Shown: piece by piece, positions 5,065-58,737 of the stretch
Numbering within the stretch: the first letter of the stretch is position 1
Layout: each line of letters starts with the position of its first letter
Assembly: GCA_036679605.1 (NCBI GenBank)
Contig: JAZDCZ010000407.1
Coordinates: 91,417 to 155,416, forward strand
Reading direction: 5' to 3'
From: Gemmatimonadota bacterium
GTDB taxonomy: Bacteria > Gemmatimonadota > Gemmatimonadetes > Gemmatimonadales > GWC2-71-9
Length of the DNA: 64,000 bases
Notes under the pieces: model-generated
Database searches by the model: none
Seen by the model: only the letters and a program-made list of their open reading frames with translations
What the model was told of the DNA's origin: nothing
Position numbers and translations under genes: made by a program

Positions 5065-5679
5065 ATGCCGAAGTCCGAGAACATTGCCGCAGATATTATC
5101 GAGCAGACTGAGGGTGAGCAGGTGGTCGAAGAGCAGCGCCCGACGACTACGCCTGGCATGCAATGGTGCATTATACGAGCCACCACCAACATGGAGAACA
5201 GGGTGATGAAGTCGCTGGCTAGTGGCAGGATACCCGGCATCGGGCGGGTTTTGGTGCCGACTGTGGCCGAACGGCGTGCGAAGGGCGGCGAGAGCATAGT
5301 GGTGGAGAGGCGGCTGTACCCTGGCTATGTGTGGGCGGAGATTGTCCTAGAGGACGGTTTGGTGCCGGACGATGTGTGGTACGCGATAGGCGGCGTCACT
5401 GGGTGTATCGGCGTGTTGGGGGATAGAAAACCCTCGCATGTGTCGGAGGAGGAGGCCATCGCCATGTTGGAGGTTGCGTATCAGAAGGAGAAGCGGATCA
5501 AGGGTCCGGATTTCGCTCTTGGCGATATGGTGGCTGTCCGGGACGGCAGCTTTGAGGGTCATGAGGGGGTTGTGGAGAAGATCGATGAGAGGAAGTGCAT
5601 GGCCACTGTGGACATCGTGATATTCGGGCGATCCACCCCAGTGGATATCGAAATTTGGGCGTTGGAGAAGACCGTCTGA
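5065..5679 (+). CDS. nusG: Transcription termination/antitermination factor, NusG family
   Basis: NGN domain (RLYPGYVW) plus KOW domain (GDMVAVRDGSFEGHEGVV...IFGRSTPV). Confidence 0.9.
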   Translation: MPKSENIAADIIEQTEGEQVVEEQRPTTTPGMQWCIIRATTNMENRVMKSLASGRIPGIGRVLVPTVAERRAKGGESIVVERRLYPGYVWAEIVLEDGLVPDDVWYAIGGVTGCIGVLGDRKPSHVSEEEAIAMLEVAYQKEKRIKGPDFALGDMVAVRDGSFEGHEGVVEKIDERKCMATVDIVIFGRSTPVDIEIWALEKTV

Positions 5680-23730: not shown

Positions 23731-23796
23731 ATGTTGATGATCGCAGCAACCCGTGAACAAGAGCAGGCCGCCGAAGCGAGGGGGGTCTCCGGGTAA
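23731..23796 (+). CDS. Leader peptide of tRNA cluster 1 (MLMIAATREQEQAAEARGVSG)
   Basis: GGAG RBS; run GAA CAA GAG CAG GCC GCC GAA GCG matches downstream Glu/Gln/Ala tRNAs. Confidence 0.8.
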   Translation: MLMIAATREQEQAAEARGVSG

Positions 23797-23854
23797 GCTG
23801 CACTTACATGGCGAAGTGAACCAGCCCTGGAGACGCGAGTCTCGGGGCTTTTTT
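23785..23854 (+). terminator. Attenuator: antiterminator/terminator before tRNA cluster 1
   Basis: Terminator AGCCCTGGAGAC-GCGA-GTCTCGGGGC-T6; its 5' arm can instead pair with GTCTCCGGG/GCTG flanking the leader stop codon. Confidence 0.8.
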
Positions 23855-23859
23855 ATTGC

Positions 23860-24332: not shown

Positions 24333-24403
24333 GCCCTTGTCGTCTAGCGGTAGGACAGCGCGCCTTCAACGCGCAAACGCCGGTTCGATTCCGGTCAAGG
24401 GCA
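24333..24403 (+). tRNA. tRNA-Glu(TTC)
   Basis: GCGCG-CCTTCAA-CGCGC. Confidence 0.9.
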
Positions 24404-40028: not shown

Positions 40029-40091
40029 ATGATGAACTTAACGCTAAGCCCATGGTTACTCCCATATCTGCCCGAGGAGGGTGTCACCTAA
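40029..40091 (+). CDS. Leader peptide of tRNA cluster 2 (MMNLTLSPWLLPYLPEEGVT)
   Basis: Run CCA TGG TTA CTC CCA TAT CTG CCC plus upstream TTA and CTA; matches Leu/Pro/Trp/Tyr tRNAs. Confidence 0.8.
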   Translation: MMNLTLSPWLLPYLPEEGVT

Positions 40092-40152
40092 GCTGCGCGT
40101 ACATTTTGCGTTTCGCAGCCCCGGTGACCAAGAGGTCATCGGGGCTTTTTTT
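40083..40152 (+). terminator. Attenuator: antiterminator/terminator before tRNA cluster 2
   Basis: AGCCCCGGTGACC-AAGA-GGTCATCGGGGC-T7; 5' arm can instead pair with GTCACC/GCTGCG flanking the leader stop codon. Confidence 0.8.
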
Positions 40153-40285
40153 GTGGACATGGAGCGGACGTGTCCCGTTGGGTTCAAATCCCGCCGTCCG
40201 TATATTGAAGAGAGAGAGAGATATTAAGGGAGATAAGGCGGCAGGCGTCAGAGGCTCGTTCCCGGCACCGCACACTCTCCTCTTT

Positions 40286-56667: not shown

Positions 56668-56775
56668 TTTTCGTCATGTCGATGCGAATAATAGGTTGGC
56701 AGGGCTGGTCGTTTATCAGGCCGACGGACTGGCTTACGGCTCAGCTCCGCGAGATTTCTTTTGGAGGATATGATA

Positions 56776-57675: not shown

Positions 57676-57749
57676 TAGGCCGCCTCGGACTCGAACCGAG
57701 AACCTCATCTTTAGGAGAGATGCGCTCTAATCCATTGAGCTAGCGGCCT
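57676..57749 (-). tRNA. tRNA-Arg(CCT)
   Basis: CATCT-CTCCTAA-AGATG on minus strand. Confidence 0.9.
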
Positions 57750-57750
57750 G

Positions 57751-57826
57751 CCAAATGAGGCAGGATTTGAACCTGCGACCCCGCCTTCGGAGGGTGACGC
57801 TTTGTCCGAACTAAGCTAACGGCTCC
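57751..57826 (-). tRNA. tRNA-Arg(CCG), acceptor stem degenerate (possible pseudogene)
   Basis: Loop CTCCGAA, intact T-arm, 3' acceptor strand does not pair. Confidence 0.55.
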
Positions 57827-57828
57827 AA

Positions 57829-57902
57829 TGTCCCCGGGAGGATTTGAACCTCCAACCCTCGGCTTAGAAGGCCGCTGCGCTGATCCATTGCGCCACGGGG
57901 AC
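57829..57902 (-). tRNA. tRNA-Arg(TCT)
   Basis: CGGC-CTTCTAA-GCCG. Confidence 0.9.
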
Positions 57903-57909
57903 GGCAAAT

Positions 57910-57950
57910 ATAGACTAGGCAGGAATCGAACCTGCGACTTCATTCTTTCC
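57910..57950 (-). pseudogene. 3'-half tRNA remnant
   Basis: GTCGCAGGTTCGATTCCTGCCTAGTCTA, T-arm and acceptor strand only. Confidence 0.55.
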
Positions 57951-57953
57951 TAA

Positions 57954-58027
57954 TGAGCCTGACAGGAATCGAACCCGCAACACCCCGGTTAAAAGCCGGA
58001 CGCTCTACCAAATTGAGCTACAGACCC
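57954..58027 (-). tRNA. tRNA-Lys(TTT)
   Basis: TCCGG-CTTTTAA-CCGGG. Confidence 0.9.
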
Positions 58028-58095
58028 CGCTAACTGTCCTAACCCGAACCAAGTTCCCCGTCGTTCACGGGTATTAAATGCCGCTTGGATTCAAA

Positions 58096-58168
58096 TGGGT
58101 CTAGCTGGTTTCGAACCAGCGGTCTTCCGGTTAAGAGCCGGACGCTCTGCCTACTGAGCTATAGACCC
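58096..58168 (-). tRNA. tRNA-Lys(CTT)
   Basis: TCCGG-CTCTTAA-CCGGA. Confidence 0.9.
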
Positions 58169-58192
58169 TAAAATGTTTTGTGTGTGTTGAAA

Positions 58193-58282
58193 CTAACGCT
58201 TCAACCGGCGCGGTCTTCGCCCGCCGGATATCAGAGGCCGAGACGGCCTCAAACGTTTATCGAGATGGAATTGCGTGTTCAT
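58193..58282 (-). CDS. Leader peptide of tRNA cluster 3 (MNTQFHLDKRLRPSRPLISGGRRPRRLKR)
   Basis: Contains AAA, AAG and all six Arg codons; lies between promoter and Lys/Arg tRNAs. Confidence 0.7.
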   Translation of the reverse strand: MNTQFHLDKRLRPSRPLISGGRRPRRLKR

Positions 58283-58291
58283 ACTAGAACA

Positions 58292-58320
58292 GGTGTATCG
58301 CGCAGGAATCCGAATGTCAA
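58292..58320 (-). promoter_or_regulatory. Sigma70-like promoter of tRNA cluster 3
   Basis: TTGACA-17 bp-TACACC on minus strand. Confidence 0.65.
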
Positions 58321-58362
58321 GGCAGACCTTGAAAAAACCCGCTGGCCAGCATATAATCGAAC

Positions 58363-58737
58363 ATGAGATACACCATCGCCATTATGATTATCAGCGTTAC
58401 TGGCTGTTCGTCTACGAAGATGCGATCGTCCGATGTCAGGATGTTCAATCAATCTACGACGAGGGTTTCCGCGCCACGAAACTCAAATATACTGTTTGAT
58501 CCAATCCCTATCCAGGGTGCTGCGGATCCATCATCGTTCATTCGCAGTGATTGGCCCAGTACTCCGCACAAATGGATTGTGACATCGGAAGAGGTGCGTT
58601 GGCGAGAGACCATTTATGACCATCAGGGTAGTTCTGGATATTCCGGCCACGGTGGTTATGGAGGCCATGGAGGCACTGATGATTATCATAGGGTTTTCCA
58701 TAGTGTACGCCGTGGTCACGCCAAGGCGAGAAAATGA
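58363..58737 (+). CDS. Putative lipoprotein
   Basis: Lipobox VTGC. Confidence 0.55.
   Translation: MRYTIAIMIISVTGCSSTKMRSSDVRMFNQSTTRVSAPRNSNILFDPIPIQGAADPSSFIRSDWPSTPHKWIVTSEEVRWRETIYDHQGSSGYSGHGGYGGHGGTDDYHRVFHSVRRGHAKARK

Follow-up and report, generated by a model that had tools for sequence, protein, structure and literature searches.

The window analysed here is the whole stretch of 64,000 nucleotides that corresponds to positions 91417-155416 of C343, a contig of approximately 155 kb from bin G000. On its minus strand lies a cluster of tRNA genes preceded by a short ORF, leader 3, with its own promoter; L268 and L277 in the following list are two related metagenome loci.

58329..58357, plus strand: divergent promoter, arranged back to back with that of leader 3; the ORF at 58363-58737 starts 5 nt past its -10 box, i.e., leaderless
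58292..58320, minus strand: sigma-70-type promoter of leader 3 (-35 at 58320-58315, 17-nt spacer, -10 at 58297-58292), kept in L268 and L277
58193..58282, minus strand: leader ORF, 29 codons, no Shine-Dalgarno; 8 Arg, 2 Lys and 1 Ile(AUA), with Lys/Arg at six of the last eight codons
58234..58250, minus strand: hairpin 1, within the ORF; L268 has an identical stem and L277 no homologous one
58205..58227, minus strand: hairpin 2, within the ORF; unchanged in L268, whereas in L277 the same 10-mer is conserved but surrounded by another long hairpin
58186..58205, minus strand: hairpin 3, spanning the stop codon and lacking a U-tract after it; absent from L268
58169..58192, minus strand: spacer of 24 nt, A/C-rich and G-free (A11 C6 T7 G0)
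58096..58168, minus strand: tRNA-Lys(CUU)
58028..58095, minus strand: insert of 68 nt separating the two Lys tRNAs; 49 nt of it recur at C343:74558-74606; absent in the relatives
57954..58027, minus strand: tRNA-Lys(UUU)
57911..57953, minus strand: 3' remnant of tRNA-Ile(UAU), a gene that L268 and L277 keep whole
57829..57902, minus strand: tRNA-Arg(UCU)
57756..57825, minus strand: tRNA-Arg(CCG), degenerate, with a damaged 3' acceptor strand; whole in the relatives
57676..57749, minus strand: tRNA-Arg(CCU)

The first-pass annotation had described a Lys/Arg tRNA cluster. The Lys and Arg genes are indeed there, and the cluster originally held a tRNA-Ile(UAU) as well, of which the window retains the 3' remnant. 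The two copies of the insert (window 58028-58095 and C343:74558-74606) are short, palindromic and 92% identical, and look like an IS200/IS605 end; TnpB-type genes are present on C343.

The promoter had been given as TTGACA-17-TACACC on the minus strand with the ATG 9 nt past the -10 box, and it was found exactly so. The -35 hexamer is a perfect sigma-70 box, and the -10 box matches at three of six positions and lacks the last T, which is why the promoter was missed by the promoter scan; it is a one-base insertion relative to L268 that takes this T away. The resemblance to the promoter of cluster 1 also holds, with the -35 regions matching at 10/11 bases, and leader 3 shares with cluster 4 and the relatives a conserved 8-mer that lies partly in the -10 box and partly immediately upstream. 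The ORF runs from the ATG at 58282 to the TAG at 58195-58193, and its 5' UTR is predicted to be 2-4 nt long, that is, nearly leaderless. An ATG 5 nt past the -10 box occurs in three promoter matches on C343, indicating that leaderless starts are used on this contig.

The eight Arg codons of the ORF cover all six kinds and both Lys codons are present, as previously noted. Lys and Arg together make up 10/28 codons versus 5.6 expected from dinucleotide shuffles (p=0.023), with 3 and 4 in the other frames of the same strand and 9 in the best reverse-strand frame. The complete set of Arg kinds is a feature of the window copy and not a conserved trait, given that its occurrence among eight Arg codons has a probability of 0.078 and that CGU is absent from the leader of both L268 and L277. 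The peptide has no match in NCBIfam. An overlapping plus-strand ORF (58178-58366) was rejected because its frame is lost in L268.

Both GC hairpins reported inside the ORF fold as described, and a third one over the stop codon had been overlooked. Leader 3 has a folding z of -3.4, with only 1/200 shuffles equally stable. The absence of a hairpin with a U-tract between the promoter and tRNA-Lys was confirmed; hairpin 3 was considered as a terminator and rejected, since it has no U-tract and is not conserved. Among the Rfam covariance models run on 58080-58400 only tRNA attains its gathering score, and a T-box reading was rejected for lack of a covariance-model match. A conserved two-state structure was also rejected: the 5-bp helix that closes the folded part of the ORF has a probability, at nascent length, of 0.96 in L268 and L277 versus 0.13 in the window, and there is no covariation. 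The sequence around the stop resembles the RfaH ops motif, a likeness put down to chance because it is forced by an Arg codon followed by the stop. The C/A-rich spacer ahead of tRNA-Lys lies where it had been placed (58192-58169), and its A+C content (17/24) is the highest among the 5' flanks of the 24 tRNAs called by ARAGORN on C343. It is a candidate for the downstream half of a Rho entry site, or for a simple unstructured 5' leader of the tRNA.

Three further tRNA clusters of C343 are preceded by leaders:

23731..23859, plus strand: sibling leader 1, Ala/Glu/Gln at 10/20 codons, with antiterminator and intrinsic terminator
40029..40160, plus strand: sibling leader 2, Leu/Pro/Trp/Tyr at 10/19 codons, with intrinsic terminator
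L004 = C343:60648-61740, minus strand: fourth tRNA cluster (Thr, Arg remnant, Gly, Asn, Met), directly behind dnaK, with a matched leader of its own (leader 4) and a terminator

Codons for the amino acids of their own clusters occupy 10/20, 10/19 and 17/27 positions in leaders 1, 2 and 4 (shuffle p 0.0017, 0.003 and 0.011), so that on C343 each of the four clusters is preceded by a leader in which its amino acids are over-represented (p 0.002-0.023), the amino-acid sets being drawn from the cluster tRNAs, degenerate ones included. Leaders 1, 2 and 4 end approximately 30 nt ahead of a closely similar intrinsic terminator, a pattern that occurs exactly three times in the genome. When the terminator pattern was searched in genome contigs, a tRNA lay just downstream in 2/120 loci among the matches listed, which are mostly unspecific. 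In folding calculations with a sliding ribosome footprint the terminator arm of leaders 1 and 2 is freed as the last cognate codon is passed (1.0 to 0.3 and 0.75 to 0.4, respectively), and leader 4 gives no clear switch. As modelled for leaders 1 and 2, the logic of the family would be read-through on stalling. The tRNA-SeC called by ARAGORN at window 24333-24403 has the look of a tRNA-Glu(UUC) in which the base preceding the anticodon is unusual, and this fits the Glu codons of leader 1.

Relatives of leader 3 were found via a pattern common to the two Lys tRNAs of the element, which returned 11 metagenome loci. Three of these (L268, L274 and L277) are homologous clusters with the same neighbouring genes, and the other eight are unrelated tRNA-Lys genes, excluded after reading the upstream 500 nt. 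Given that L274 is identical to L268 over the region read it was not counted separately, which leaves two independent relatives. Since the relatives were picked by tRNA and not by leader, the presence of a leader in them is an out-of-sample test. The leader is present and the terminator absent in 3/3 homologous loci. Both L268 and L277 keep the -35 box, the 17-nt spacing, the ATG 8-9 nt past the -10 box and an ORF of 29-30 codons, followed by an A/C-rich spacer of 23-32 nt and then tRNA-Lys(CUU) as the first gene of a Lys, Ile(UAU) and Arg(UCU, CCG, CCU) cluster. The composition of the spacer is kept and its sequence is not (47-60% identity).

The content of the ORF is also maintained. Lys and Arg account for 10/28 codons in L268 and 13/29 in L277 (shuffle p 0.020 and 0.0001), and the six codons read by the cluster (AAA, AAG, AGA, AGG, CGG and AUA) all occur in the leaders of the window, L268 and L277 (p 0.0004, 0.0019 and 0.0003). 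In each of the three leaders Lys/Arg fill six of the last eight codons (p at most 0.0009), and the Arg codons show no bias towards the kinds that the cluster reads (4/8 and 5/11; 55% expected). Between the window and L268 all three changes in codons 9-29 are synonymous (chance approximately 0.03); codons 3-8 hold more differences, with the frame kept. The L277 ORF is 59% identical, has another fold and contains more Arg. In a crude simulation of neutral decay (substitutions only) to the divergence of L277, 0.09% of runs still had a frame that was open and held ten or more Lys/Arg. Two further contigs were left out of the counts because they come from the same study and have low depth. The one from X2 (depth 2) links tRNA-Lys to the leader; its spacer is 9 nt shorter, no terminator is inserted, and the ORF shows one synonymous change and an Arg to Gln replacement at the last codon. 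The one from X3 covers part of the ORF. No leader homologue was found by DNA among 61 relatives of G000 (tRNA-length matches only), in INPHARED phages, in IMG/VR via tRNA, terminator, promoter or neighbouring-protein patterns, or in 401 genomes of the class of G000 and 401 of that of G429.

From the comparison of these sequences, leader 3 is a real, conserved, terminator-less variant of the codon-matched leaders of tRNA clusters. The suggestion that its terminator had been deleted is not borne out, since no relative has one and the ORF is still constrained in its absence; indeed, the lack of a terminator in intact relatives makes a recent deletion unlikely. The first-pass annotation had named, as a result that would speak against it, an unconserved ORF with its Arg richness a by-product of GC-rich hairpins. 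The ORF is kept in two relatives, and L277 has different hairpins and yet more Lys/Arg, so the hairpins do not explain the Arg richness.

The window copy itself carries signs of decay, namely the weakened -10 box, the broken tRNA-Ile and tRNA-Arg(CCG) and a lost RNase P RNA. A full class A RNase P RNA is found in the relatives (L268:6212-6581 and L277:6073-6432) next to the cluster-side gene, 1.5-2.6 kb away, and window 56680-56750 keeps both flanks and a short remnant of it, which indicates that the ribozyme gene was deleted. The window copy of leader 3 is possibly weakened.

The ORF probably senses the decoding of Lys, Arg and Ile codons. The first-pass annotation had assumed the same sensing logic as in the sibling leaders, and this is upheld by the two relatives that keep the ORF together with cluster-cognate codons and by the three siblings matched to their own amino acids. 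It had also assumed a different output, which stands insofar as some terminator-free output remains; of the candidate outputs, a structural lock is not conserved and likeness to a rut site does not exceed background. Our tentative reading is that the sensor ORF couples the output of the Lys/Ile/Arg cluster to Lys, Arg and Ile(AUA) decoding without an intrinsic terminator, with Rho-dependent attenuation as the most likely means. Transcription would start 2-4 nt ahead of the ATG and the ORF would be read as a near-leaderless message. With ample charged Lys, Arg and Ile tRNA the ribosome would finish and leave, opening to Rho the leader of approximately 120 nt and the A/C-rich spacer, which would be the only unstructured stretch ahead of the tRNAs, and Rho, helped by NusG, would stop transcription inside the cluster. 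With these tRNAs scarce or cut, the ribosome would dwell on the cognate codons up to the stop and cover the entry site, and the cluster would be read through. The sign of this regulation is borrowed from sibling leaders 1 and 2.

A Rho output appears the most plausible one given that the cognate codons abut the stop, that the spacer composition is kept without its sequence and that tnaC, speFL and cruR provide a precedent. The position of the codons distinguishes leader 3 from leaders 1 and 2, and its stop adjoins an untranslated, unstructured stretch with no intrinsic terminator. Leader and spacer do not resemble a rut site more closely than 120-nt windows drawn at random from C343, since the skew of unpaired C over G in the window, L268 and L277 is reached by 42%, 44% and 26% of 600 such windows, respectively, and for this reason we only infer the Rho step. 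In the three leaders the skew is 0.28-0.48 and the unpaired length 60-69 nt, the latter at the low end for a rut site; YC counts are ordinary, and only the A+C share of L277 stands out (reached by 1.3% of windows). According to excerpts of PMC12360218, rut sites prefer A and C over 60-90 nt, and NusG helps at weak ones. A Rho gene is present in G000 and scores over cut-off in 4/5 planctomycete genomes, neither of which is necessarily the host of the element, and the element's own NusG-family gene scores under its curated cut-off.

Instead of stopping transcription, the position of the ribosome might set the pairing of the leader with the first tRNA-Lys, spoiling its folding or its processing by RNase P. 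An 8-bp stretch complementary to the tRNA-Lys(CUU) anticodon arm does lie hidden in a hairpin of each of the three leaders; in the window, once the ribosome is at the stop, leader pairing to the start of the nascent tRNA climbs to 0.58, and the relatives encode their own RNase P RNA at the short distance given above. Nonetheless, this pairing is flat near 0.8 in L268 and near 0.2 in L277, whereas a positive-control family (five IMG/VR contigs, three distinct sequences) switches from 0.05 to 0.72, 0.0 to 0.76 and 0.31 to 0.56, which leader 3 does not do consistently. The energies of the anticodon-arm duplexes fall within those of shuffles (fractions 0.07-0.16), the complementary stretches lie at non-homologous places, and full cloverleaves stay intact in the window and L277 at every ribosome position (0.97); that of L268 misfolds in the model at every position. 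Moreover, such pairing would act on a single tRNA, whereas the codons of the leader correspond to the entire cluster. Judged by pairing with the tRNA start and by full cloverleaves, a conserved folding lock on tRNA-Lys was therefore rejected across the window, L268 and L277, being seen in the controls L173, L203 and L243, and an output of this kind is unlikely for leader 3. The controls (L173, L174, L227, L203 at about 2315-2413, and L243) carry a six-codon Lys/Arg mini-ORF before tRNA-Lys(CUU) and Lys(UUU), with a Shine-Dalgarno, a covarying hairpin and no U-tract, and the 3' arm of the hairpin is complementary to the tRNA start in 3/3 distinct sequences.

Basic-X-basic motifs stall ribosomes under macrolides. 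The ORF might be kept for the sake of a small basic peptide with affinity for RNA or the ribosome tunnel, or for stalling under antibiotics or translation stress, instead of sensing tRNA supply, and constraint is indeed visible at the amino-acid level with no synonymous bias among the Arg codons. Induction of tRNA arrays by translation stress elsewhere (excerpts of PMC8421152) would fit. Against this, the peptide is poorly kept between the window and L277 and matches nothing in NCBIfam, the AUA codon tracks tRNA-Ile(UAU), and three sibling leaders match their own clusters; we regard a role of the peptide itself as improbable.

It is somewhat less probable that the leader is a vestige or a chance ORF, with a terminator deleted or never there, a constitutive cluster and Arg codons derived from GC hairpins. 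The decay of the window copy, the modest Lys/Arg excess in the window alone and the nine Lys/Arg of the reverse frame are what such an origin would leave. The 13/29 Lys/Arg of L277 on different hairpins, the intact relatives without a terminator, the synonymous-only changes and the neutral-decay simulation largely refute it for the lineage; it may apply to the window copy alone.

A cut in the 5' spacer of a tRNA should aid its maturation and not destroy it. This, together with the lack of a conserved alternative fold, makes it quite improbable that the output is RNA decay, with a ribosome dwelling on Arg/Lys codons shielding the precursor from RNase E/G-type attack. The element does encode an Rne/Rng-family nuclease and the spacer is single-stranded, and excerpts of PMC6386406 describe such protection by Arg codons in Salmonella speF. 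Least likely of all is the opposite sign, in which a ribosome stalled early in the ORF leaves the spacer open to Rho and the cluster is turned off under Lys/Arg starvation, as ordinary polarity does (excerpts of PMC12360218): cognate codons also occur early and a stall there leaves 37-61 unpaired nt downstream, but leaders 1 and 2 are wired for read-through on stalling and the densest cognate block lies at the stop.

C343 is read from its sequence as a piece of a huge phage or giant mobile element. Its genes include IF3, a NusG-family protein, DnaK/DnaJ, RNase E/G, Pnkp/ligase-like, Rsr, methylases and a polyvalent protein, and a scan of 132 ORFs against Pfam and 41 against PHROGs gave no capsid or terminase; its GC content is 0.556, compared with 0.582 for G000. 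The gene beside the Lys/Ile/Arg cluster has named relatives in Phycisphaerae at approximately 70% identity and others at 78-86%, and G000 is nearly twice the size of its genus-mate, so the taxon of G000 may not be the host of the element. Two side observations concern its proteins. The NusG-family protein (window 5065-5676) scores under the cut-offs of NusG, LoaP, UpxY and RfaH, and could influence the termination of the element's own transcripts. At L002:8516-18763 a polyvalent protein of 3415 aa has NUDIX, ADP-ribosyltransferase-like, GNAT, Tpt1-like and nucleotidyltransferase matches, most of them under cut-off.

Compared with ten large host-like contigs, AAA, AAG, AGG and AUA are 1.4-2.1 times commoner on C343, AGA is 1.2 times commoner and CGG is rarer. 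Anticodon nucleases cut tRNAs of the kinds found in the Lys/Ile/Arg cluster, as in the specificity of colicin D. Put together with a Rho-based output, this suggests, with the same reserve, that a giant phage-like lineage may meter its Lys/Ile/Arg tRNAs with a leaderless multi-codon sensor and Rho blocked by a stalled ribosome. The metered tRNAs would perhaps be those that serve the codons overused by the element and that anticodon nucleases cut, and one genome might then hold two attenuation chemistries for tRNA homeostasis, this one alongside terminator-type sensors; neither was found in print in our literature search. In an unrelated 121-kb phage (L177:2040-2235, G431) a 29-codon leader with an intrinsic terminator matches a Trp/Met/Ile/Lys/Arg/Val/Thr array, so that the same Ile/Lys/Lys/Arg/Arg/Arg block lies behind a terminator-type leader.

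The classical multivalent leader-peptide attenuators are thrL, ilvL, hisL and pheM. Leader 3 shares with them a short leader rich in the amino acids of its operon, and siblings 1, 2 and 4 have the full anatomy; leader 3 differs in having no terminator/antiterminator and no Shine-Dalgarno, in codons that run to the stop and in the tRNAs downstream. Its closest parallels in output would be the uORF-dependent Rho attenuators tnaC, speFL (orf34) and cruR (excerpts of PMC12360218 and PMC6386406), which also have a short uORF, no intrinsic terminator and a G-poor untranslated stretch by the stop, with Arg codons in speFL too, and where a dwelling ribosome masks the Rho entry site, as proposed for leader 3. 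Those, as described there, control protein genes through a ligand-bound arrest peptide, whereas leader 3 precedes tRNA genes and would respond to the apparent speed of decoding of several codons, with a putative Rho step. The mycobacterial leaderless polycysteine sORFs (excerpts of 10.1101/834739) resemble it as near-leaderless, amino-acid-rich short ORFs that come first in the transcript and have no terminator; they attenuate by releasing a downstream ribosome-binding site, and behind leader 3 the next gene is tRNA-Lys, with no such site to release. The Anabaena trn operon and the L-arrays under TrcR (excerpts of PMC8421152 and PMC10272220) are likewise accessory tRNA arrays on a mobile replicon with RNA-repair genes near (Pnkp/ligase-like and Rsr on C343). 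There the array is raised under translation stress through control of initiation, by a repressor on direct repeats, unlike the control proposed for leader 3, and the main text of PMC8421152 does not contain 'attenuat', 'leader' or 'terminator'. No paper on leader-peptide control of tRNA genes was found in a literature search that covered few subscription papers and no supplements.

The reason for tRNA genes in phages and mobile elements, and their regulation, if any, are open questions; one answer is that they replace tRNAs which host defences cut (excerpts of PMC12409363 and PMC2610378). A leader written in the codons of its own tRNAs would be a direct gauge of tRNA supply, and the fact that this gauge is kept across diverged elements without the textbook terminator implies that another output exists. 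Leader 3 is a 150-nt unit, and scans based on terminators miss part of this leader family. With the terminator, a leader and the same terminator motif stand before a tRNA in a Planctomycetia MAG (L059:1375-1535) and an Acidobacteriota MAG (L090:1350-1535), the gene after the tRNA being presumably band-7/slipin-like, and a 30-tRNA array (L362, G677:C21) has upstream of its first tRNA an ORF of 54 codons, mixed in its amino acids, and a short hairpin with a U-tract.
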